Positions 4,807 to 21,360 of a stretch of 23,498 nt of DNA are shown here, piece after piece; the first letter of the stretch is position 1; the number at the start of each line of letters is the position of its first letter. The notes below the pieces were generated by a model, which worked only from the letters and a program-made list of their open reading frames with translations, was not told where the DNA came from and did no database searches. A program made the translations under genes and the position numbers. Source of the DNA: a virus (lineage: Duplodnaviria > Heunggongvirae > Uroviricota > Caudoviricetes); IMG/VR virus record IMGVR_UViG_2617270976_000016, positions 1-23,498 of that record; one strand, given 5' to 3'.

Positions 4807-7524
4807 TTAAGCTACATTGCCGGGGTAGGTAGCGTTATCGTACTGATAGAAAGTGTCGCGATACTCTTTTGCCGTTACCTGACATGTTCCATCAGATTGC
4901 GGTGCTATCTCTGAAATTAATGCGCTATATCCAACACGGGATGACTCGCAGAAAATCAGACGAGGCGATTCAATGGATGGGGCGTTTAGCATGATATTGC
5001 TGAATTTTGCTTGTTCTATTACTGATAGAACATATTCATTTACCCTTGTAGCTGCCAGCAAATCCGAAGCAGAACCATCCTGATAGCGTATCAATGCACG
5101 TGGGTTGTTGAATGTCCAGTCAAGTGGTTCTGATACTGTAATAGTCGTTACGCCATCACTTGTACTCATATCCTCAATCAACGTGCTTATTGTTTTGCTA
5201 CCAGGAATATCATCCGTGAATACTACCCTGTCGCCAACGTTATAACAGAGAGCATCCATTTCCGTTGTTGTGGTATGAGTCAAACGTTGCTGAAGGTACT
5301 TCATCAGACGTCGCATACCTATCTGATAAGCACGGTCCTGGTCAAGAACACCATCAAGCGTATAGTCCTCAATCTTTACCGGAGTTGGGTTATCTGATGT
5401 TCTGCACTGCACCGTCTCTTCAGCCCATGTAGTGCCGTTGATATATGTAACATCCACACCATCATAGTCATCTGCTGACGGAGCAACGAAAGCAGTCTGA
5501 AGCGGATCAGTCATCTCCTGTGGGCTGATTATTCCAGTCCACGTTTTCACACCTTCCCTTGCTACAGATGCCAGACCATCGGTAAGAAGGAAGTAACTTT
5601 TTCCTGCATTTGTCACCTTCTGAAGCATCTCCAGCGCAGAAACAGAATCCGTAGTGGCATAGTCAAAGAATTCACTGCCAGGGGTCCAGTAAGTAGTTTC
5701 TAGTGAGTCAATAGCTTCACGGTCCATCGCTAGCCCCAACTCATTACCTATATGATACAGAGCACCAGAAATGCTCCTTGACACACCAGAATCATAAACT
5801 CGCGTGGCTACAACGTTTACGCGGCGATCTGACTGCGCTGCCAGTTTACCGCCAGTTTCCACAGTAACCGCAATTGTGGGGACGCCAGTATACGATGCTG
5901 GCCGTGACAACAAACGTCCTCGCAATGACTGCCAGTACATGTTATCGCGACTGTTATTCTGTCCCTGCTCGTTCGTGCGGCGAGCTCTCACCTCTACTAG
6001 CGCAGGCGTATCCAGCGTGATTCTTTCGGTAAATCCCAGTCCGTTAATGTTCTGGAGGTAGTACGATCCGGTTTTACTTATCCACCCGACGCCTGAACCA
6101 TATGGCCGGTACTGAATCTCCCACTTTACCTCACGGTATTGTTTGTTCCCTTTTTTGTTATACCCACAAATCCCGTTTGGGAAGAAGAAGTTTACTTCGA
6201 ACATATCAACAACTTCATTTTCTGGGCACGCCAGAAAAGGTCCCATCCAACTATCGTTCTCATTTAAACCGTTGGCTTCAAAATCAAGAACTGTGCGCGG
6301 TGAAAATCCAGGCCATGACGGATCAACGCTGCCATCAATAACCCGCTCCAGAGTTACAGAGCTACCATCTATATCAAGAATCTTATATTCGCTTCCGGAA
6401 TGGGAAACAGATAGCCTGACATAACCTTCAGGAATCCCGGTGAACGGAGTTCCAGTGGCGCTATCGTAAGCGAGGGTTATTGATGCGGTAATCACATCTT
6501 CGCCGACTGGCTCAGAGTGAGGTATAAAATCAGCAATGAATAGTTGGTAATCAATGCTGTTGTACCAGAGAGTTACAGGCATCCCAACATAAGGAGCTAT
6601 TTCCTCCAGCGTGTCACTGGTAATTCTGCTGTAAGCACCATCATTAGTTACCACATAGGAATCAGGAACAATTAACTCAACAATTGCACCAACAGTCCAT
6701 GTATCTGGAAGATCATTTGTTGTTTCATCTCCATCATCCGTGCTCAGCCCATTAAATGTTATTGTTGGTCCGGAAACGGTTAGCGAATTAGCAACAACAT
6801 CTTCCGTGTCCGGCGCGGTTTGCGCCATATCAAGACCAGAACCAGATGCGGTTCCCCCAACCTCTGTGGAATTGAACCAGTTTTCTGATCGTTGATCTCC
6901 ACTAACGCTTTGCCCGGGTTGATACACTGTGTAGTTAAACCCATCACCAAGAGAAGCAATTGGAGTTGACCCTACACGAATATCGCCATCCCCAAATGAA
7001 AAACGCCCTCTCCCCATAACAACAAACATTTCAACTGTCATTACCGTTGGATCATCAACTGAGAATCTTGTTACAGGCTGCACTGCATAGTCAGGATAAA
7101 TACGGCTTCGTCCAAATAACTCACGTATCGGGTCGCCCAATTTTGCGTTATTCGCTTTAGCAGGATTTACATCAAGAGGGTTTCCCGTTCCTGATGAATA
7201 ACCGCCAAGGTCACCAACACCAGGAGCAAAGAAAAGAGCATACGCGACTGATGCAACTGATACAGCAACGGCAATCCAGGCAAGAGCTACAGCGCCATAA
7301 GGGACAGGGTAAATTCTGACATCACTGTCTGATTTGATAGCAAATTCAAACCATGCCTGAGGCGGTATGTTCTCTCCATCAACATCAACGGTGATCGGGT
7401 GCTTCATATCAGGCTTATAGCCCTGAACGTTCTTCGCAAGCCACTGATGGATAGTTACTGCGCCATGTTCATGAGTTTCGAGTGGCTCGCCAGGCAGCCG
7501 TGAAGGATAAATTCTGATAGTCAC
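4807..7524 (-). CDS. Large tail-tip / host-specificity protein (J-like central fibre protein)
   Basis: About 900 aa directly downstream of the NlpC/P60 tail gene; start placed at GTG 7524 overlapping upstream stop as GTGA; alternative ATG at 7407; predicted hydrophobic helix near N-terminus. Confidence 0.5.
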   Translation of the reverse strand: MTIRIYPSRLPGEPLETHEHGAVTIHQWLAKNVQGYKPDMKHPITVDVDGENIPPQAWFEFAIKSDSDVRIYPVPYGAVALAWIAVAVSVASVAYALFFAPGVGDLGGYSSGTGNPLDVNPAKANNAKLGDPIRELFGRSRIYPDYAVQPVTRFSVDDPTVMTVEMFVVMGRGRFSFGDGDIRVGSTPIASLGDGFNYTVYQPGQSVSGDQRSENWFNSTEVGGTASGSGLDMAQTAPDTEDVVANSLTVSGPTITFNGLSTDDGDETTNDLPDTWTVGAIVELIVPDSYVVTNDGAYSRITSDTLEEIAPYVGMPVTLWYNSIDYQLFIADFIPHSEPVGEDVITASITLAYDSATGTPFTGIPEGYVRLSVSHSGSEYKILDIDGSSVTLERVIDGSVDPSWPGFSPRTVLDFEANGLNENDSWMGPFLACPENEVVDMFEVNFFFPNGICGYNKKGNKQYREVKWEIQYRPYGSGVGWISKTGSYYLQNINGLGFTERITLDTPALVEVRARRTNEQGQNNSRDNMYWQSLRGRLLSRPASYTGVPTIAVTVETGGKLAAQSDRRVNVVATRVYDSGVSRSISGALYHIGNELGLAMDREAIDSLETTYWTPGSEFFDYATTDSVSALEMLQKVTNAGKSYFLLTDGLASVAREGVKTWTGIISPQEMTDPLQTAFVAPSADDYDGVDVTYINGTTWAEETVQCRTSDNPTPVKIEDYTLDGVLDQDRAYQIGMRRLMKYLQQRLTHTTTTEMDALCYNVGDRVVFTDDIPGSKTISTLIEDMSTSDGVTTITVSEPLDWTFNNPRALIRYQDGSASDLLAATRVNEYVLSVIEQAKFSNIMLNAPSIESPRLIFCESSRVGYSALISEIAPQSDGTCQVTAKEYRDTFYQYDNATYPGNVA

Positions 7525-8393: not shown

Positions 8394-8863
8394 GGCTCAG
8401 GCCACTCCCTGTTAAGCGCAATATCAATGATGCTGCTGTTGATAATGTAATCAGGAAAATCAGCCCAGCCAGGAGCCAGAACAGGCCTTTCCCACAATTC
8501 CAACGTGGCCGTGTAGCGCCAGTAGTTTCCGCCTTCAATTGTCGGCCCCTCATAGATATCCACGAAACGACAGACATAAACATCAACAACGCCTAACGGA
8601 GATCGAAGAGGCATGTTAAACCAGTCAGCGCCATCCTTAATGGTGTCCCTGAACCATACCTCAAATAGTTGAGCTTCCGGATCCGTAAGCAGCCATGCAA
8701 CCGAGGCCTGAGTTGGCGTTGAAGTATATAATCTCCTCTGCCTCGCCCTGCCGGATGTGAGTTCGGTTCTCAGTAATGGGCTAACTGGCTTTAACCCGAA
8801 CCCTTCCTGCAATGGAACAGGAAGGTAATCATTCGGATAGTTAATGCTGGTCGTTTTAGCCAT
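8390..8863 (-). CDS. Phage tail protein (distal tail protein-like, immediately after tape measure)
   Basis: 157 aa; start overlaps tape-measure stop as TAATG at 8861-8865. Confidence 0.4.
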   Translation of the reverse strand: MAKTTSINYPNDYLPVPLQEGFGLKPVSPLLRTELTSGRARQRRLYTSTPTQASVAWLLTDPEAQLFEVWFRDTIKDGADWFNMPLRSPLGVVDVYVCRFVDIYEGPTIEGGNYWRYTATLELWERPVLAPGWADFPDYIINSSIIDIALNREWPEP

Positions 8864-10189
8864 TAACCAGTTCTCCTGTTAGTGTTCCAGCGCATCATTG
8901 CTTTCGAAATGTCACCTTTCCCACTGGCAAGGTCGCTGGCTGCCTGTTGATATCCAAGTTTTGCCCCCTCTGCCATGGCTTGCTTCATCATGGAGATCTG
9001 AGTATCAGACGGATCACCGTTAACATTCATGTTAATAACGGGAGAGAAGCTTGCTCCGCTGGTTGATTGTTGATTTACTCTGTCCAGTGTTTCATCAAGC
9101 TTTGCTGACGTCTGAGAGGTCACAACTCGCTCACCTTTCTGGAGCAACCATGTTCCTGTTTCCGGGACGCTATCAATACCATCGTGCGCCATACCTGCCA
9201 GGGCAGAAGTACCAACTGCTGCAACAAGTGGTGCAGTTACTGCCGCAGCTGTTGCCATCGCTGCAGGTGCAAGCGCGGGACCAACGATAGGAATTGCCGC
9301 TGTCGATGCGTATGCTGCGATTTGAGCCTGCAAAGATGATGCCTGTGCGTTTGCCAGCATTGATGCCGCTGCGCTTGCCTGAGTGGATTTACCTACCAGC
9401 AATTGCACTGCCTGATATACCAGCCATTGCGCCGCCATATCAGAAAGGGTTTTAATGATTGTTTCACCAAGACCAGAGAAAATATTACTGAAGAAATCAC
9501 CTAAATCTTCTGCACCGTGCACAAGGTCATTAAGGTTGTCAGAAATAACCGAGGTTGCTCCACCAAGAATAGAAGTCATCGCATCTGCAGCAGTCTGGTA
9601 ATAATCAGCTGATTTATCAGCATAATCATTCAACGAGTCCATTATCCCGCTTTGCCAGTCGCCCATCTGAGCATCAGACTTTTTGTAGTAGTCCTCCTGA
9701 ATATCAAGACGGTCATCAAGCGCCTGCTGTAACGCTGCCGTTTCCTGGTCATAAAGCGATTTGCTTATATCACCACTTTGGTACTGTTTCTGTAGATCTT
9801 GCTGCCTGTCGAGAAAACTACGATGGATATCCAGCAATTCCTTCATGCGCTGGCGAGTCTTGTCTCCCATACCTGCGCCGATAAAATCAGAATCATTAGC
9901 TGCCTGGTCATTCTGATTTTGCTTACGTAAATTAGCGGTAAATTCGACAAGTTTCAGATTTTCTTCGTTGGCTTTTTTAAGTGAGTTGAGGCGATCTATC
10001 TCAGTAGCAAGTTGCTCAAGTCGCTCTTTCTGAGCTGCATTAATTCCTGTTAATTTCCCAGATGTAAAATCAAAACGCAGCTTCTCAAGCTCGGTTAGAG
10101 GCCAAACAGATATCGGAATGGAACGCTGGCATAAACCAGCACAACGAAGTACGCCAGCAATGATATAGCGGGGCGATGTCTTGCCCCTT
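8863..10189 (-). pseudogene. Tail tape-measure protein, 3' remnant (N-terminal part deleted)
   Basis: Ala/Gly-rich hydrophobic C-terminal region typical of tape-measure proteins; frame is open with no start codon from 9870 up to a stop near 10190; first ATG only at 9870; no upstream head or tail-tube genes. Confidence 0.5.
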
Positions 10190-13751: not shown

Positions 13752-14141
13752 TCAGGCGGCTGCACCCGCCACGGTTTCAAATCGGCTGATCGTTATCTCT
13801 ACCCTTCCAGGCTTTACTACAGGCCCCCATTCGATTGCCATCCGTTTAACCTGACTGTCGTCTTCCCAGACTCTGGCATTCGTCAGTGCGTCGAACAGCG
13901 CTTTGTTGTAATTGTCCAGATCCCGCCGTCTGTTATCTGGCGGGAAAAGAACTATGTTTACCTCAACGTTGACGTTAACTGGTTTAGGTATACCGCCGTA
14001 CTGCTCAACAACAGATGCGTAAACGTTCTTCTTGAATTTCCTACCCATCTCACTGATCAGATGCTTACCCTTTAACGCTCCACGGTCAGGTGACCGGTAA
14101 TAGGTGTTAACTGTTGGCGGGAATGGCAGCGTTAATTTCAT
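13752..14141 (-). CDS. rusA: RusA-family Holliday-junction resolvase
   Basis: 129 aa from ATG 14141; motifs LTLPFPPTVNTYY and RRRDLDNYNKALFDALT match RusA; ATGA overlap with upstream ORF. Confidence 0.8.
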   Translation of the reverse strand: MKLTLPFPPTVNTYYRSPDRGALKGKHLISEMGRKFKKNVYASVVEQYGGIPKPVNVNVEVNIVLFPPDNRRRDLDNYNKALFDALTNARVWEDDSQVKRMAIEWGPVVKPGRVEITISRFETVAGAAA

Positions 14142-14428
14142 TGCTGAACACCCCTCGCTTCCAGCCATGACAAGGCGCGTTCTCTTGAATCACTCTCACC
14201 GTTAATGAGTGACTTGATGATCGATATCGCGTCTGCCTCATCATTTCCTGAAATAACGGTGATCCCCCTGGAAACTCCAGGTGCTACTGAGATATATCCC
14301 TTCTTCGCTATATAACCCGTTGAGTTTCTGGCTCCCACCGGATAACCCTGACTGGGACGCCGTAGCTGTCTTTGAACCGTCTGTTGAGTGCTCGCATTCG
14401 ACCTTCTCCACCTGGCCGTTGAAATCAC
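14138..14428 (-). CDS. Hypothetical nin-region protein (possibly 3' part of a frameshifted gene)
   Basis: 96-aa frame whose stop overlaps the rusA start as ATGA; only its C-terminal half looks protein-like. Confidence 0.3.
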   Translation of the reverse strand: MISTARWRRSNASTQQTVQRQLRRPSQGYPVGARNSTGYIAKKGYISVAPGVSRGITVISGNDEADAISIIKSLINGESDSRERALSWLEARGVQQ

Positions 14429-14576
14429 CTACAACCCAATCGGCAAACTGGTAGCAGACAGGCTCAAAGCATCCGGATACCATTACCCCATACACGAACT
14501 GCGCCGGACCTTTTCCACCCGGCATAGGTCGAGCAATAAGTTGCGACCTGCGGTACTGTGTTGTTACACTGTTCAT
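14241..14576 (-). CDS. Hypothetical nin-region protein (possibly 5' part of a frameshifted gene)
   Basis: 111-aa ORF with RBS GGAGA; overlaps the next ORF by about 190 nt in a different frame. Confidence 0.3.
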   Translation of the reverse strand: MNSVTTQYRRSQLIARPMPGGKGPAQFVYGVMVSGCFEPVCYQFADWVVGDFNGQVEKVECEHSTDGSKTATASQSGLSGGSQKLNGLYSEEGIYLSSTWSFQGDHRYFRK

Positions 14577-14637
14577 GCGTTAGTTTCTCCACTGAATACG
14601 ACACGCCACGACGCCAGGAGCTGCACACTCGCTGGCG

Positions 14638-15102
14638 TCACTTCTTTTGACGGCGGCTGAATAAGGCCACAATCGCGCGGATCTCTTCTTCACGTGCTGC
14701 CAAATGACGGCGGTGATGTTCCTGAATCTCTTCGGCTTCATGCTTTTCAATCACTCCATCCTCAAGCGCCTTCTGGATAATCTGATCAACCTGACCTCTT
14801 GCAGCTGCTGTACGCATTGCTCGACTGAACAAGTCAACACGGTCAAGATCTTCCAGGCTTGGTACATCCACCAGCAGCGCACCGCGACGCTTAGCAAAGT
14901 AGTCAGCAACGAATGACGTGTTGGAAATGTCTTCCATCGCTTCCAACTCGGTGACTTCAAAGAAACGACAACCGTTTTTCTCGTAAAGGTTGTTGTTGAA
15001 TTGGGTTTCTGACATGCCCAACGCACCAGCCATAGCTTGACGGCCTCCTGGGTACGCCTTACACATCGCTTTCACTACTTCTTTCAAAGTTTGCTCTACC
15101 AT
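14638..15102 (-). CDS. CII-like / YdaT-like phage regulatory protein
   Basis: 154 aa from ATG 15102 with RBS AAGGA; immediately downstream of cro-like gene, the usual position of cII; charged helical C-terminus. Confidence 0.4.
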   Translation of the reverse strand: MVEQTLKEVVKAMCKAYPGGRQAMAGALGMSETQFNNNLYEKNGCRFFEVTELEAMEDISNTSFVADYFAKRRGALLVDVPSLEDLDRVDLFSRAMRTAAARGQVDQIIQKALEDGVIEKHEAEEIQEHHRRHLAAREEEIRAIVALFSRRQKK

Positions 15103-15325: not shown

Positions 15326-15417
15326 GGTTCCTCCTGGTTAACTCACGCCTTAAAGGTAACAAAAGGTACATTAAATAGCAAACAACAGTTACAAGGAATC
15401 AATGTAACATTGGTTAC
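15326..15417. promoter_or_regulatory. OR-like operator/promoter region between cro and cI
   Basis: Contains 21-bp motif AAGGTAACAAAAGGTACATTA (15353-15373), perfect palindrome TGTAACATTGGTTACA (15403-15418) and further GTAAC/GTTAC half-sites; cI ATG has no SD. Confidence 0.55.
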
Positions 15418-16077
15418 ATGAAAACAGAGATGAAAGACCGAATAAGATCCCGGCGAGTCCAGCTCGATATAACTCAGCAGACCCTGGCTAAACGCCTTGG
15501 GGTGAGTAGAGTGTCCGTTACCAAATGGGAGAACGGTACAACTAAGCCTGACGGAGAAAACCTTCACCAACTAGCGATGGCTTTACAGACCACTCCTGAA
15601 TGGATTCTTTACGGCAAGGGTGATGAGACTCAAGATGACACCAAAGTTATCCCATACCTGAAGCCACCTACCGCCGTTCCTATTATCTCTGCTGTTCAGG
15701 CCGGGGTATGGACTGATACCTATGCATGCTCAAGGCTTACTGATGTGATTTCATGGACTCAAACCACAGCAAACGTTTCTGATGAAGTTTTCGGATTGGT
15801 GGTTCGTGGTGAGTCAATGACTAACCCACATGGACTTCCATCAATTCCGGAGGGCTCAATCGTTATTGTTGAGCCACATTACGGACAACTTGATGACCTG
15901 TATGGGAAAATTGTCGTAGCAATACTTGATGGTTCAGCAGAAGCGACTGTGAAGAAACTTGTTTGGGATAGCCCTTACTCATATCTCATGCCGCTTAATC
16001 CCGCCTTTAAGCCGATCCCCATTGATGGCAATTGCCGCATTGTAGGAAAAGTTGTTCAGATAACGCAGAACATCTAA
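15418..16077 (+). CDS. CI-type prophage repressor (N-terminal HTH, C-terminal LexA-like S24 peptidase domain)
   Basis: 219 aa; HTH (QQTLAKRLGVSRVSVTKWENG) and S24-like C-terminus (GESM…, VVKK…) read from translation. Confidence 0.85.
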   Translation: MKTEMKDRIRSRRVQLDITQQTLAKRLGVSRVSVTKWENGTTKPDGENLHQLAMALQTTPEWILYGKGDETQDDTKVIPYLKPPTAVPIISAVQAGVWTDTYACSRLTDVISWTQTTANVSDEVFGLVVRGESMTNPHGLPSIPEGSIVIVEPHYGQLDDLYGKIVVAILDGSAEATVKKLVWDSPYSYLMPLNPAFKPIPIDGNCRIVGKVVQITQNI

Positions 16078-16090
16078 GTAACTCATTTCT

Positions 16091-16120
16091 AATGCCAGAT
16101 ATCATTCTGGCATTTTTTTC
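16091..16120 (+). terminator. Intrinsic terminator after cI
   Basis: Stem AATGCCAGA/TCTGGCATT with 6-nt loop followed by TTTTTTT. Confidence 0.5.
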
Positions 16121-16126
16121 GCCTTC

Positions 16127-16184
16127 AAGGTAACAAAAAGTACATTAACTTACTTGACCGTCATGGTAACTAAAGGTACATTTA
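16127..16184. promoter_or_regulatory. OL-like operator region with candidate rightward early promoter (-35 TTGACC 16154-16159, -10 TACATT 16177-16182)
   Basis: Two copies of the OR operator motif (16127-16147 matches 20 of 21; 16163-16184 GGTAACTAAAGGTACATTT) overlapping the hexamers. Confidence 0.5.
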
Positions 16185-16243
16185 AAACACACCAGACGAA
16201 CCCATAGTTACATTCATCTGGTGATGCCTCGGTATCCTGTAAT

Positions 16244-16281
16244 GGCTGTCACTCCCCGCACTTTGTGGCAGCCATCTTTTT
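16244..16281 (+). terminator. Promoter-proximal intrinsic terminator downstream of the candidate early promoter
   Basis: 9-bp stem GGCTGTCAC/GTGGCAGCC (one G-U pair), 12-nt loop, then ATCTTTTT. Confidence 0.4.
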
Positions 16282-16709
16282 AGGGAGCATAAGGCGGTCG
16301 CGGTAAGCATCTCGCAGGGTTCTTACCGGGACTGGAAGAGTTACCACTTGGAGACGGTCCTTTTAAATGTCCTGGACAGTGGCGCTTTGGTCGCGATAAC
16401 AACCACTCCAGTTGATCCTGGGAGTTATCAGGTCAGTGAGATGCCAGCACTCTCGACGGCAGTGACAGCCGGAAGTAGACGGCGCAGCCCAGACGATATC
16501 TGAGTGGCTATAAAAACAGATGGACGTCGGTGGAATCCCGACAAATGGGTTTCATGTACCGAATGAACACATGATGACGCGGGGAAAGAACCGTGACAGG
16601 AGGGAAGTAGACCCCGCGAACACAACAGGTAAGAGCATTTGTATGTTGGCTGTGATTGTTAAGTCTATCGCAACGCCAAGATTGAAAATAATGCAGTGCT
16701 CTTACCGTT

Positions 16710-16786
16710 GTGGCATTAGCTCAGTTGGATAGAGCAACGGCCTTCTAAGCCGTGGGGCGCAGGTTCGAATCCTGCATGCTGCACCA
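16710..16786 (+). tRNA. Phage-borne tRNA-Arg, anticodon UCU
   Basis: Cloverleaf traced by hand: D-stem GCTC/GAGC, anticodon stem ACGGC/GCCGT with loop CTTCTAA, T-stem GCAGG/CCTGC with TTCGAAT loop, 3' ACCA; acceptor stem has two G-U pairs. Confidence 0.8.
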
Positions 16787-16840
16787 GAATCACGTAGCCA
16801 GTGTGGTACCAGGAAGTAAGAAAGCTGTGTGGAGTCTTGG

Positions 16841-16884
16841 CGGTACCAGTACCAACCTTTGAAGTCCCTGGTACCGCCCTTTTT
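16841..16884 (+). terminator. Hairpin plus T-run downstream of tRNA-Arg (probable terminator)
   Basis: 9-bp stem GGCGGTACC/GGTACCGCC followed by CTTTTT; palindromic GGTACC occurs three times in 16805-16875. Confidence 0.35.
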
Positions 16885-16885
16885 A

Positions 16886-16968
16886 CTCAACTGAAAGCGC
16901 GTTCTGTCCCTTGTCATTAAGTGCCAGGTCGTTAAATCCAAAACCAGCGGAACGCGCTTTCAATTGAG
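16886..16968. repeat. 19-bp imperfect inverted repeat around a 45-bp spacer
   Basis: CTCAACTGAAAGCGCGTTC (16886-16904) pairs with GAACGCGCTTTCAATTGAG (16950-16968), one mismatch. Confidence 0.6.
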
Positions 16969-17116
16969 TGGAGAAACTAACCGGCGATTGCAGTCGCCCG
17001 TTTCACTAAGTGCCTCTTCATGGGGCATTTACTGAAACGAAACCAAAACTTTTATTCGCCTTTTGGCGAGGGATTCGTGCAACCAAAATTCAGCGGATTT
17101 TTCCACTGGAGGACTA

Positions 17117-17272
17117 ATGAACCACCTCGAATTTATTGAGAAGAACGTAAGGGAAATCCTTATTAAACAAGGTTTTTCCTCTTCAGTGGCTCAGGGGGGG
17201 CATGGCAAGCACTTGATTTATATAAGCGAATGTCACAAGCCAGTAAAAAAGGCGCGATTTTTGACGATGTGA
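17117..17272 (+). CDS. Small hypothetical protein (51 aa)
   Basis: ATG at 17117 preceded by GGAGG (short 4-nt spacing); no family recognised. Confidence 0.25.
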   Translation: MNHLEFIEKNVREILIKQGFSSSVAQGGHGKHLIYISECHKPVKKARFLTM

Positions 17273-17429
17273 TGAGGCATGCAAAAGCCTGGGCAGATAA
17301 GCAGGTTTCAAAGTCCGAAGTCACAAAAAGAAAACGTGCCCAACCTAAAGACCAAGGTGGCCTCTTTTAAGTATCAAGGCCAAAGAATTCAGCGCCGTGC
17401 AGGGCGCATAAAACACGGAGAAACTAACC

Positions 17430-17912
17430 ATGACGACCACACAGAATGTCACTGAGTTACAACCACGTATGACCAGAGAGCAACTGATCGATGCAGCGCG
17501 TAAAGCCGCCCCTCTCCTTCCGGTTGCTTACCGCGGGATCATGACCGAACTGGCTAACCGTCTTGATATCGTCAGCGTGGCGCTTTGCGAGTCAATGGAA
17601 CAGCGTAAAGCACTGGCCATCGAGAACACCGTTTTACGAGACGATGTTAATTGTTGGGCCAAAGAGTGCGACCGCATCGTTGAACGTCATACCAAATCGC
17701 CGACCAATATGCACATGCTGGAGGCGCAGAGAGAATTACGCGAGCTAACTCCAGTAACCGATCAGGTTATTCGCGATATCCAGGCCACTGGCGTGGAAAA
17801 GTACGCAAACGTCACTATTGCCATAGGGAAAGAAGAGCAAGAAGAAAGCATTGTTTACGCTGGTAATCAGGCTCTGTTATTCGCTAACCAACTTCGTGAA
17901 GGTACTGCGTAA
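17430..17912 (+). CDS. Hypothetical early protein (first gene of early operon)
   Basis: 160 aa; RBS GGAGA; stop overlaps next start as TAATG. Confidence 0.4.
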   Translation: MTTTQNVTELQPRMTREQLIDAARKAAPLLPVAYRGIMTELANRLDIVSVALCESMEQRKALAIENTVLRDDVNCWAKECDRIVERHTKSPTNMHMLEAQRELRELTPVTDQVIRDIQATGVEKYANVTIAIGKEEQEESIVYAGNQALLFANQLREGTA

Positions 17913-18952
17913 TGGCCGCCAACTCATTCAAACAGATGTCCCGTGACGGGACCATCAAGCGCACCGATACCGGGATGTTTATTAGCCTTGAACATATCCA
18001 CGTGCGTGAAGGTTTCAACAAGCGTGAAGACGACGAACGCACACGCCAGGCAGATGACGAACTGTTTAACTATCTGATGAACGGCGGTACCGTTCCTCCA
18101 CTGGAGGTTATCGCACGCGATGAAGGCGGTGTGTGGGTTGTTGAGGGTCACCGCCGTCGCCGTTGCTATGCGCGTTGTGCTGAAGCAGGTAAGCCAGTAG
18201 ACCGCATTCATATCATGCCTTTCAACGGTAACGATGTGCAGCGTCTGGCTCGCATCATGACCAGTAATAACCAACTCCCCCTTTCCGATATTGAACAGGC
18301 TGCTGTTATTCAGGAGCTTCATAATGCTTTCAACCAGACCACCAGCGAGATTGCAAAGCTGGTCAATAAGTCTGTAGCGACCGTTGAGAAGTTGCTCACT
18401 CTGAGCACCGCTAATTATGACGTTCAGCAGGAAGTTAAATCTGGTGCCGTATCTGTTGATGTTGCTGTTGACCGCGTTCGCGAGTTTGGCGAACAAGCTG
18501 GTGAGGTTCTCCAGCACGATAAAGCCGTAGCCGCCGCCCAGGGAAAAACAAAGGTTACGCGCAGTTCTATCGCGCCTGAACTCAACATTAAAAGTGCTCG
18601 CCGTTTTGTGGAGTTAATGGCCATGGCGACGATTAGCGATGAAGGCGTGTTCACTTTGCAAGGCACGGCACTGGCTGAAGCTCTGGCGATCATCGACGAA
18701 CATAAAACCATTGCTGAAGCTCGCGAAACCTATCGCCTTTCACAGCCAATCCCTACTACAGAAATTATCGGGAAGGTGCTGTATGTGAAGCTGGACGGTA
18801 AGGAAATCGGCTCGGCAATAATTTATCGCGGTAAGAACGTCACGCTCGACCTAGGTGATAGAAAAATAATCGCCAGCCAGTCAAAAGCAGTGGCCCACTT
18901 CGTTAAACAACACAAACTTCAGCAGGTACATACCAATGCAAACGATCAATAA
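17912..18952 (+). CDS. ParB/Srx-like nuclease-domain protein
   Basis: 346 aa; N-terminal ParB-like motif region (VVEGHRRRRCYA); translationally coupled to neighbours. Confidence 0.5.
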   Translation: MAANSFKQMSRDGTIKRTDTGMFISLEHIHVREGFNKREDDERTRQADDELFNYLMNGGTVPPLEVIARDEGGVWVVEGHRRRRCYARCAEAGKPVDRIHIMPFNGNDVQRLARIMTSNNQLPLSDIEQAAVIQELHNAFNQTTSEIAKLVNKSVATVEKLLTLSTANYDVQQEVKSGAVSVDVAVDRVREFGEQAGEVLQHDKAVAAAQGKTKVTRSSIAPELNIKSARRFVELMAMATISDEGVFTLQGTALAEALAIIDEHKTIAEARETYRLSQPIPTTEIIGKVLYVKLDGKEIGSAIIYRGKNVTLDLGDRKIIASQSKAVAHFVKQHKLQQVHTNANDQ

Positions 18953-20741: not shown

Positions 20742-20827
20742 TGCCGCCAGTTAAAGTGGTTGTTATTACCGTGGTGATGCTAGCGATCTGCCAGTTAGTT
20801 TCTATGACGGGATATGGCATATGGTGA
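20741..20827 (+). CDS. Possible 28-aa hydrophobic peptide (MPPVKVVVITVVMLAICQLVSMTGYGIW)
   Basis: ATG overlaps upstream stop (TGATG) and its own stop overlaps the next ATG; single TM-like segment; not in the ORF track because it is too short. Confidence 0.25.
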   Translation: MPPVKVVVITVVMLAICQLVSMTGYGIW

Positions 20828-21099
20828 GCAAGCTAAAACAGCGTCGCATACGCCGACTGAAAGCCGATGTAGCATGGTGGAAATCTGAAGCTGAGTACTG
20901 TAAGGCGCGAGTGTTCGAACAGGCAAACGAAATTGCTGAACTAAGAAGCATGGTGATTCGTGTACCAATGCCGGTAATGGTGCCAGTAGAGATACTTCAT
21001 CAGCTAAATGGGAAGGGATCGAAAGAATATCCATTATGTCGCAATTGCAACGATGGAACCCGTCACGGGTGTTCATCGTGTGCTTACAGAATGAAGTAA
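20821..21099 (+). CDS. Hypothetical small protein with coiled-coil N-terminus and C-terminal 4-Cys cluster
   Basis: 92 aa; CRNC…GCSSC pattern. Confidence 0.4.
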   Translation: MVSKLKQRRIRRLKADVAWWKSEAEYCKARVFEQANEIAELRSMVIRVPMPVMVPVEILHQLNGKGSKEYPLCRNCNDGTRHGCSSCAYRMK

Positions 21100-21132
21100 C
21101 CGGGTGCAGCCGGTTTAAGTGGAGAACTAACT

Positions 21133-21360
21133 ATGAGCGGACAAATCCAACGTTTTCTTACTCCAGATGACCTCTATCAATTAACTGGTTATCGTCGCCC
21201 TTCCCTACAGTGTAAAGCTCTGAGGGATAGTGGGGTATTTTTTATCCCACGCAAGGACGGAAGGCCAGGAACAACATGGGATCATGTATCAAACCCTGTT
21301 GGACTTAAGTTAATAGTGAGCAATCCAGAGGAAGAAGAACCAAACTTTAAGGATATGTAA
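21133..21360 (+). CDS. DUF4224-like protein, putative excisionase / recombination directionality factor
   Basis: 75 aa; motif LTPDDLYQLTGY; stop overlaps integrase start as TAATG. Confidence 0.5.
   Translation: MSGQIQRFLTPDDLYQLTGYRRPSLQCKALRDSGVFFIPRKDGRPGTTWDHVSNPVGLKLIVSNPEEEEPNFKDM

Follow-up and report, generated by a model that had tools for sequence, protein, structure and literature searches.

A small hairpin immediately ahead of the gene that opens the distal early-left operon of a defective lambdoid prophage raises the question of whether this prophage carries an N-utilisation (nut) site of the lambda type at that place. The prophage was analysed as a stretch of 23,498 nt (the window; positions 1 to 23,498 of IMG/VR record IMGVR_UViG_2617270976_000016), in which the + strand is the "leftward" direction, that of the early-left promoter PL. 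A first-pass annotation had suggested, as a speculation, that the string CCTCTTTTAAG and the hairpin GCGCC-GTGCAG-GGCGC might form a boxA/boxB element just upstream of the operon. Both strings are present at that place and the hairpin is indeed the last feature before the gene, with a gap between the two of 20 nt, not about 25 nt. We found that the GUGCAG hairpin belongs to an unannotated kind of RNA stem-loop, which occurs three times in the prophage and hundreds of times in related phages, and that the region is not a boxA/boxB nut site; an arginine-rich peptide may still recognise the hairpin in a boxB-like way.

Taken alone, the hairpin (hairpin 1, GCGCC-GUGCAG-GGCGC; 17392-17407, +; stem arms 17392-17396 and 17403-17407, loop 17397-17402) is unremarkable. 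A GGAG (17417-17420) follows it after 9 nt and, after 22 nt, the ATG (17430) of the gene that it serves, which encodes a 160-aa protein of unknown function (phrog_14171; 17430-17912, +). The hairpin by itself folds with −9.5 kcal/mol, its 79-nt context folds no better than shuffled sequences (z = +0.36), and the + strand of the window contains 28 hairpins with a hexaloop and a 5-bp stem of at least three G-C pairs. Its significance comes from comparative data. When 86 related loci were gathered solely by homology to the downstream 160-aa protein, the hairpin was kept in the same place in 85 of them and its loop was invariant; in the 86th (L011), it was found ~570 nt upstream, ahead of another gene. 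At the homologous site the stem takes the forms GCGCC/GGCGC, GCGCU/AGCGC and GCGUC/GACGC, a compensatory replacement of C-G by U-A at two positions, and the intermediates GCGUC/GGCGC and GCGCU/GGCGC have U.G pairs on the sense strand. RNAalifold recovered hairpin 1, with double changes at three pairs. Upstream of the conserved GGGAUUCGUGCAACCAAAAUUCA, the 86 loci show at least three unrelated sequence types and an insert type, which places hairpin 1 in the constant part. The leader that precedes hairpin 1 in the window is also present in an e14-like prophage of E. coli ECONIH4, where it ends in GUGCG-GUGCAG-CGCAC; all five pairs differ there and the loop is the same, and this hairpin precedes a different first gene, that of an HD hydrolase. 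These data support the earlier view of the hairpin as a functional RNA stem-loop of boxB size.

Other structures at this site were considered and rejected. No intrinsic terminator was found at hairpin 1, the + strand continuing with AUAAAACACGG and a weak T-rich tail being present only on the antisense strand. RNAalifold also drew a helix enclosing hairpin 1, in which UUCGUG of the conserved GGGAUUCGUGCAACC pairs with CACGGA of the Shine-Dalgarno region and which could sequester the Shine-Dalgarno sequence; this pairing was seen in locus L013 and its relatives (alignment columns 46-55 and 94-105, equivalent to window positions 17072-17079 and 17414-17419). The helix is invariant, without covariation, and absent from the other classes, and it is also absent from the window itself because a 299-bp insert separates the two strands. 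Pairing of the loop with the 3' end of the phage tRNA-Arg (CUGCAC) was ruled out, as that strand is base-paired in the tRNA and most hairpin-bearing phages do not carry this tRNA.

Scanning the window for any 5-bp stem around GTGCAG identified two further copies. Hairpin 2 (ACCGG-GUGCAG-CCGGU; 21099-21114, +) lies 6 nt before a GGAG (21121-21124) and 18 nt before the ATG (21133) of the excisionase gene, and it begins on the final base of the stop codon of the upstream gene, which encodes a 92-aa protein. Hairpin 3 (GGCGG-GUGCAG-CCGCC; 13755-13770, −) is located in the last codons of RusA, with a GGAG 8 nt further on and the ATG (13735) of an Ant/KilAC antirepressor gene 19 nt further on; locus L001 has the same arrangement, and phage ST64B has a version with 4 of the 5 bp after RusA. 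The three copies have the same loop on unrelated 5-bp stems, each in operon sense with a GGAGA 6-9 nt downstream, and the window contains exactly these three perfect GUGCAG hairpins with a downstream Shine-Dalgarno sequence and ATG. A stem-specific search with GCGYYGTGCAGRRCGC had matched hairpin 1 only, which was misleading because the other copies have different stems. GTGCAG occurs 23 times on the two strands of the window, and five flanking pairs would be expected by chance ~0.17 times, a figure that is our own estimate (23 x (6/16)^5, or ~0.007 per occurrence). With the cassette defined as a 5-bp stem, a (G/U)UGCAG loop, 3-9 nt, GGAG, 5-9 nt and a start codon in early-operon sense, complete cassettes are present at 17392-17432, 21099-21135 and 13770-13733 (−). 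In minimum free energy (MFE) folds, the Shine-Dalgarno sequence and start codon next to hairpin 1 are both unpaired; at hairpin 3 the GGAG is free and the start codon paired, while at hairpin 2 the GGAG is partly paired in the MFE fold and free in the centroid.

A related hairpin, GGCGA-UUGCAG-UCGCC (16983-16998, +), is present in the leader, where GGAGAAACUAACC comes before it instead of after it. The window has two copies of the 13-mer GGAGAAACTAACC, one at 16970-16982, directly before this leader hairpin, and one at 17417-17429, where it forms the ribosome-binding site (RBS) of the 160-aa gene. As a separate observation, an unrelated high-GC viral contig (L167, 11435-11600) carries four tandem 42-nt repeats, each with GCCGG-GTGCAG-CCGG and then CGTTTCAC, an octamer that also follows the UUGCAG hairpin in the window leader (16999-17006). 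These repeats may be a coincidence or an iteron-like array.

The same stem-loop was seen at loci chosen by other means. At loci collected by homology to Xis, the hairpin was present in 80/80, behind at least eight unrelated upstream flanks, with homology starting at the first stem base; at loci collected by homology to the 92-aa protein, it was again present in 80/80, beginning at the stop codon of that protein's gene and standing ahead of at least six different downstream genes. The motif also occurs in phages mEp390 and ST64B and in many IMG/VR contigs, before at least 15 different genes. Over 606 kb of loci that had not been picked via the hairpin, 37 of 44 distinct contexts made up of a 5-bp hexaloop hairpin, GGAG and ATG had GTGCAG as their loop, and 37 of 39 GTGCAG hairpins were followed by a Shine-Dalgarno sequence and ATG. 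A scan of IMG/VR with a pattern that leaves the loop free (CCGG-N6-CCGG-N2-6-TGGAGA) returned 120 stretches, ~35 of which had GTGCAG; no other loop occurred more than four times, and GTGCAG accounted for ~30% of the matches versus 1 in 4096 expected. An ATG lay downstream in 72 of the 73 GTGCAG cases versus 14 of the 85 others. The spacing is narrow (3-9 nt from hairpin to GGAG and 5-9 nt from GGAG to start codon), the spacer after the hairpin is A/U-rich, and the orientation is always that of the operon. Rare loop variants are UUGCAG and AUGCAG. Phage mEp390 has two copies, corresponding to hairpins 1 and 2, together with a long-stem variant. In ST64B one copy is perfect and two others have 4-bp stems, one of them CGCG/CGCG before the HD-type gene sb35. 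In phage lambda, used as a negative control, none of the 41 GTGCAG occurrences forms such a hairpin. The e14 prophage of E. coli K-12 has one copy, GTGGAGAAACTAAC-CGACC-GTGCAG-GGTCG; at this locus (L301, about 6094-6114, −), an RBS-like string is followed by the GUGCAG hairpin, 45 nt before xisE.

Taken together, and as judged from sequence comparison, the hairpin is under selection for pairing on the sense strand and under strong constraint on its loop, with a fixed distance to the RBS, a constant sense orientation and portability between genes. No Rfam match was obtained at the hairpins up to E = 10 (in a 3.5-kb search and searches of 100-120 nt), a literature search on GUGCAG loops returned microRNA noise only, and the literature on boxB and hexaloops gave context only. 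The motif is recurrent, is neither in Rfam nor annotated in the phage records examined, and would count among the regulatory hairpins that lie close to an RBS.

The boxA half of the proposed element is refuted, because CCTCTTTTAAG (17361-17371, +) is coding, lies in an indel that most relatives lack, is off consensus and has near-matches at chance level. The string consists of Leu-Phe-stop codons (Gly-Leu-Phe-TAA with the preceding GG) and overlaps the TAA stop (17368-17370) of an open reading frame (ORF) at 17230-17370, the end of a small phrog_4439 gene (17117-17370, +; 84 aa when intact). This gene is out of frame at a G7 run (17194-17200), the intact form being G8: the ORF from ATG 17117 and ORF 17230-17370 become one 84-aa protein if G7 is read as G8, and the repaired protein covers positions 1-74 of 74 of phrog_4439 with E = 3.4e-32. 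The string differs from the YGCTCTTTA boxA consensus by 3 mismatches at best, and the window has 13 matches to that consensus at ≤1 mismatch versus 10.7 expected. Its first bases (CCU), together with the preceding GG, are the 5' arm of a local GGCCU/AGGCC stem. Both gene and string are held by a 299-bp indel (17087-17385, +; flanks AAATTCAGCG / GAATTCAGCG) that is bracketed by AAWTCAGCG and is missing from E. coli PCP07014, as seen in the alignment, and from most other relatives. Conservation across related prophages, which the annotation had named as a check, was therefore found for the hairpin but not for the boxA-like string, which is present in only 13 of the 86 loci, all with the insert, and in one of these 13 (L075) a synonymous CTC TTC TAA breaks its T run.

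The G run of the phrog_4439 gene varies in length among the 14 loci that have the gene, divergent copies included (G7 in 6, G8 in 6 and G9 in 2). Slippage of a phase-variation type, slippage during transcription or translation, or sequencing error in the homopolymer could account for this. Elsewhere, TGCTCTTAC (16697-16705), just upstream of the tRNA-Arg gene, is closer to boxA than CCTCTTTTAAG is; it is not kept in PCP07014, which has TGCGCTTCC.

Most of the defining features of a lambda-type nut site were found to be lacking. A scan at ≤1 mismatch detected no boxA beside any of the three window hairpins. As the annotation had remarked, an N gene is not evident: searches of every early-region ORF against Pfam, PHROGs and NCBIfam gave no N-family match, for the first PL gene or any other. 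An N analogue between cI and the leader was also sought and rejected, since mEp390_036 and the window ORFs at 16348-16732 have neither an arginine-rich motif (ARM) nor family matches, and the region is not conserved as protein. The sole ARM-bearing early protein (20821-21099) is encoded just before xis and is missing in some hairpin-bearing relatives. Hairpin 1 lies ~1.2 kb from PL, downstream of terminator-like hairpins at ~16242-16282 and 16839-16884, and no intrinsic terminator was found between it and the end of int. In place of one promoter-proximal site per operon, the PL operon holds two copies, and the copy in the early-right (PR) operon sits after RusA. On the boxB side, the sequences show a 5-bp stem with covariation and an invariant hexaloop, with GUGCAG rather than GNRNA in the loop. 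The two leader terminators after PL imply some read-through mechanism. The boxB of phi21 is a hexaloop closed by a non-canonical pair (PMC12550061), and the mEp phage collection is described as Nus-dependent, with mEp021, of the non-lambdoid immunity-I group, using three nut sites (PMC11893012).

The ARM-bearing protein is the 92-aa protein ("ARM92", phrog_14816; 20821-21099, +), which is labelled hypothetical in every source. Its N-terminal arginine-rich helix, SKLKxRRxRRxxxDxxWW, is invariant even where the C-terminal domain is swapped, and the C-terminus has CxxC-x7-CxxC. An AlphaFold (AF2) model shows a single long helix over residues 4-44 with a pLDDT (predicted local distance difference test) above 90. 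The N-terminal motif resembles the ARMs of N and Nun, and its RRxRR-x6-W parallels the arginine-rich motif of lambda N with its tryptophan (RRERRAEKQAQW). At L226, the sole locus whose loop is UUGCAG, the arginine motif is altered too (n = 1). The protein is tied to the xis-type hairpin (80/80), yet L001 and ST64B have hairpins without it, so it cannot be the sole reader of the loop and was rejected as a universal partner. Of the other candidates, YmfL, RusA and DUF968 co-occur with the hairpin only by following phage lineage, in loci that are short for such a comparison, and Q proteins are not common ARM carriers, the three Q proteins being unrelated. It is distinctly unlikely, in our view, that the GUGCAG hairpin and the arginine-rich helix of the 92-aa protein constitute a new, N-boxB-like peptide-RNA pair of those lambdoid prophages of Enterobacteriaceae that lack N. 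Acting at several sites between cistrons, such a pair would control translation or read-through of xis, the antirepressor gene and early-left genes, and hairpin-bearing phages without the 92-aa protein would use another factor, possibly from the host.

The explanation that we tentatively prefer, at somewhat less than even confidence, is that the hairpin is an RBS-proximal RNA element or translational operator, not a nut site, with a loop that is read by a trans-acting factor. A modular 5'-UTR cassette of a 5-bp G+C-rich stem, the GUGCAG hexaloop, 3-9 mostly A/U nucleotides, (U/C)GGAGA, 5-9 nt and AUG precedes selected early genes in both early operons of lambdoid prophages of the e14/mEp390/ST64B type; in the window these are the first distal PL gene, xis and the antirepressor gene. 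The loop would be the recognition determinant for a factor from the phage (e.g. the 92-aa protein) or from the host. Bound 20-40 nt upstream of the start codon, inside the 30S footprint, this factor would modulate 30S loading and initiation at the adjacent cistron and/or the processing of the mRNA nearby. Several points weigh against this explanation. The hairpin leaves the Shine-Dalgarno sequence open, so it could equally be a passive stabiliser or insulator. The e14 hairpin and the leader hairpin come after GGAGAAACUAAC, not before a Shine-Dalgarno sequence, an order that an operator leaves unexplained. The 92-aa protein, alone among the candidates in having an RNA-binding-like motif, is absent from the hairpin-bearing L001 and ST64B. 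A count of pairs over 18 stem types, with double changes at all five pairs, is descriptive only and is circular as a measure of "percent paired" because its rows were selected for pairing, and the counts of hairpins overstate independent events because many of the sequences are close relatives.

Of the rivals that remain, a passive role as stabiliser or insulator comes first, an antitermination site of the N type second, and a palindrome or recombination linker acting at the DNA level third. As a passive RNA structure without a specific partner, the hairpin would be a 5' stabiliser or insulator of the downstream cistron or a 3' protector of the upstream one, freeing the RBS from upstream coding sequence and blocking exonucleases or 5'-end-dependent RNase E. 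This would be consistent with the position of the hairpin exactly at the mosaic junction between an upstream stop codon and a downstream Shine-Dalgarno sequence, with the A/U-rich spacer and unpaired Shine-Dalgarno sequence, and with the fact that a universal phage partner was not found. A passive structure would not depend on the loop sequence, but stems with changes at all five pairs carry one and the same loop, and GTGCAG far exceeds its expected share of the matches in the loop-free scan; we regard a passive role as unlikely. A chance hairpin without function, for which the single-sequence z score and the commonness of hairpins of this size might speak, has a probability close to nil, as the conservation, covariation, recurrence and context specificity seen in the comparative data effectively refute it.

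A true N-utilisation-type site would be a boxB analogue through which an arginine-rich phage protein makes RNA polymerase resistant to termination. The boxB-like geometry of a 5-bp G+C stem with a small conserved loop, the hexaloop precedent of phi21 (PMC12550061), the copies in both early operons, the need for read-through of two terminator-like hairpins after PL, and the presence of the same leader and hairpin in mEp390, from a collection described as Nus-dependent (PMC11893012), are consistent with such a site. The RRxRR-x6-W of the 92-aa protein, as in lambda N, would also fit. Set against these, no copy has a boxA nearby and the string proposed as boxA is coding, N-family matches were absent from Pfam, NCBIfam and PHROG, hairpin 1 is downstream of both leader terminators with none further on to the end of int, the copies lie 3-9 nt from a Shine-Dalgarno sequence and are not promoter-proximal, and the gene for the 92-aa protein stands at the distal end of the operon and is not present in L001 or ST64B. 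An N-type site is improbable, and a DNA-level element slightly more so. The latter would be a 16-bp near-palindrome with a TGCA core, acting as a recombination linker between gene cassettes or as a binding site for a protein, for which the ParB-like helix-turn-helix protein, or the 92-aa basic-helix/coiled-coil protein as a dimer, would be candidates. The element is palindromic at 14 of 16 positions, homology between mosaic relatives starts exactly at the hairpin, the AAWTCAGCG that brackets the 299-bp indel includes the first stem bases, the operon has a ParB-like gene, the 92-aa protein is predicted to be one long, bZIP-like basic helix, and the DUF968/HNH protein weakly matches a RecA-dependent nuclease family. 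By contrast, a duplex-binding protein reads the sequence of the arms, whereas here the arms are free to change so long as they stay complementary; neither the central G...G asymmetry nor the sense orientation varies, the intermediates at the homologous site are mostly U.G on the sense strand, hairpins are found in phages without the ParB-like or the 92-aa protein, and the fixed distance to the Shine-Dalgarno sequence and ATG is left unexplained.

Comparison with known systems places the hairpin near, and apart from, several of them. Like boxB, it has a 5-bp G+C-rich stem and a small loop, conserves the sequence of the loop and not that of the stem, and occurs in lambdoid early transcripts of both operons. 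The P22 boxB stem, GCGCU/AGCGC, is identical to one stem variant seen here. The boxB loops are pentaloops in lambda (GAAAA/GAAGA) and P22 (GACAA) and the hexaloop CUAACC in phi21, whereas the loop GUGCAG is not GNRA-like and purine-rich, and there is neither a boxA nor an N gene; unlike boxB, the hairpin stands 3-9 nt before a Shine-Dalgarno sequence, is intercistronic, lies downstream of the leader terminators and occurs in more than one copy per operon. The coat-protein hairpins of MS2 and PP7, the thrS operator and the T4 gene 43 operator are similar in being small hairpins with a sequence-specific loop beside an RBS, and a factor bound to the GUGCAG hairpin would likewise overlap the region where the 30S subunit binds. 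It differs from these operators in containing neither the Shine-Dalgarno sequence nor the AUG and in being shared by many unrelated genes. PeSL cassettes of T4-type phages and the mosaic-joint linkers of lambdoid phages are also short stem-loop cassettes that stand before many genes at recombination joints. In PeSL cassettes an early promoter is part of the unit and the sequence itself is conserved; here the stems covary, the loop is fixed and no promoter was seen.

The put RNAs of HK022 offer a further comparison, in that HK022 is a lambdoid phage without N, with similar operators and cI and with a structured cis-acting RNA just after PL. The put RNA is ~70 nt long with two long irregular stems, is present once per operon and is promoter-proximal (PMC9378689), immediately after PL and ~270 nt after PR, whereas the finding here is a 16-nt hairpin 1.2 kb from PL. 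The PL leader of the window (16186-16290) opens with a hairpin (16190-16223) in which a −10-like TACATT and the octamer AGACGAAC are found. HK022 putL starts with the same octamer, and this 8-nt similarity is all that ties the leader to putL, whose sequence we rebuilt from HK022 and checked against the residues named in PMC9378689. A terminator-like hairpin with UCUUUUU comes next (~16242-16282), and the operators resemble those of HK022. The start of the PL leader may be a put-like or other read-through device; a put RNA proper at PL was rejected, as the octamer and the HK022-like operators are not accompanied by the two-stem put architecture. The cro and cII-like genes are only ~25 nt apart, which leaves no room for putR.

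The remainder of the window has the layout of a lambdoid prophage whose close kin are prophages of E. coli and other Enterobacteriaceae and phage mEp390. A LexA-type cI gene (15418-16077) is followed by its own terminator, and a weak Rfam match to AgvB, the anti-GcvB small RNA of prophages in enterohaemorrhagic E. coli, lies over the cI stop and this terminator (16066-16118; E = 0.004 and 30.9 bits, where the gathering score is 56). The putative PL promoter (16154-16182, +; TTGACC-17-TACATT) lies between operator copies GGTAAC-N4/5-(G)GTACA that are common to OR in the cI-cro interval (about 15350-15415). Downstream of PL, the + strand has ~500 nt without a convincing gene before tRNA-Arg(UCU) (16710-16786, +), after which come a 300-nt structured leader, the small phrog_4439 gene, the 160-aa gene, a ParB-like gene (17912-18952) and accessory genes; at the distal end, the 92-aa protein gene, xis (21133) and int (21360) adjoin host tRNA genes. 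The minus strand carries cro, a YmfL/CII-like gene, RusA, the Ant/KilAC gene, DUF968/HNH, Q and holin, beyond which there are tail-gene fragments only. Between the cII/YmfL-like gene and RusA (13752-15102) there are no replication genes. The prophage is defective, and only the C-terminal third of the tape-measure gene (8863-9870) is left, directly after the lysis region.

The conserved, structured non-coding leader (16787-17086, +) lies between tRNA-Arg and hairpin 1. It comprises a terminator-like hairpin (16839-16878 and T5), a 20-bp perfect inverted repeat (16885-16904 / 16950-16969), and a covarying hairpin A (17057-17068) followed by GGGAUUCGUGCAACCAAAAUUCA, among further hairpins. Its predicted structure is extreme (MFE z = −6.97), it is ~99% identical in PCP07014, and a part of 214 nt recurs at 93% identity in ~20 complete E. 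coli genomes, in unannotated DNA of their e14-like prophages. Nearer to PL, two short non-coding segments are 85-97% identical in otherwise unrelated phages: 16298-16400 is conserved in temperate phages of Klebsiella and Salmonella and within the annotated 'mEp390_036', and 16485-16545, with a T-arm-like GUCGG-UGGAAUC-CCGAC, is conserved in phages of the Bp4/ECBP1 and SopranoGao types. These segments may be tRNA remnants or small RNAs.

The locus therefore presents a compact, widespread RNA motif with an invariant loop before the RBS of excisionase, antirepressor and early-left genes in a large group of enterobacterial prophages of the e14, ST64B and mEp390 types, phages that have no recognisable N protein and in which the control of early genes is essentially unstudied. 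If an operator is indeed shared by xis and ant, it would bear on the timing of excision and induction, and a specific binder of the loop, if one exists, would make the hairpin part of a new small RNA-protein module.

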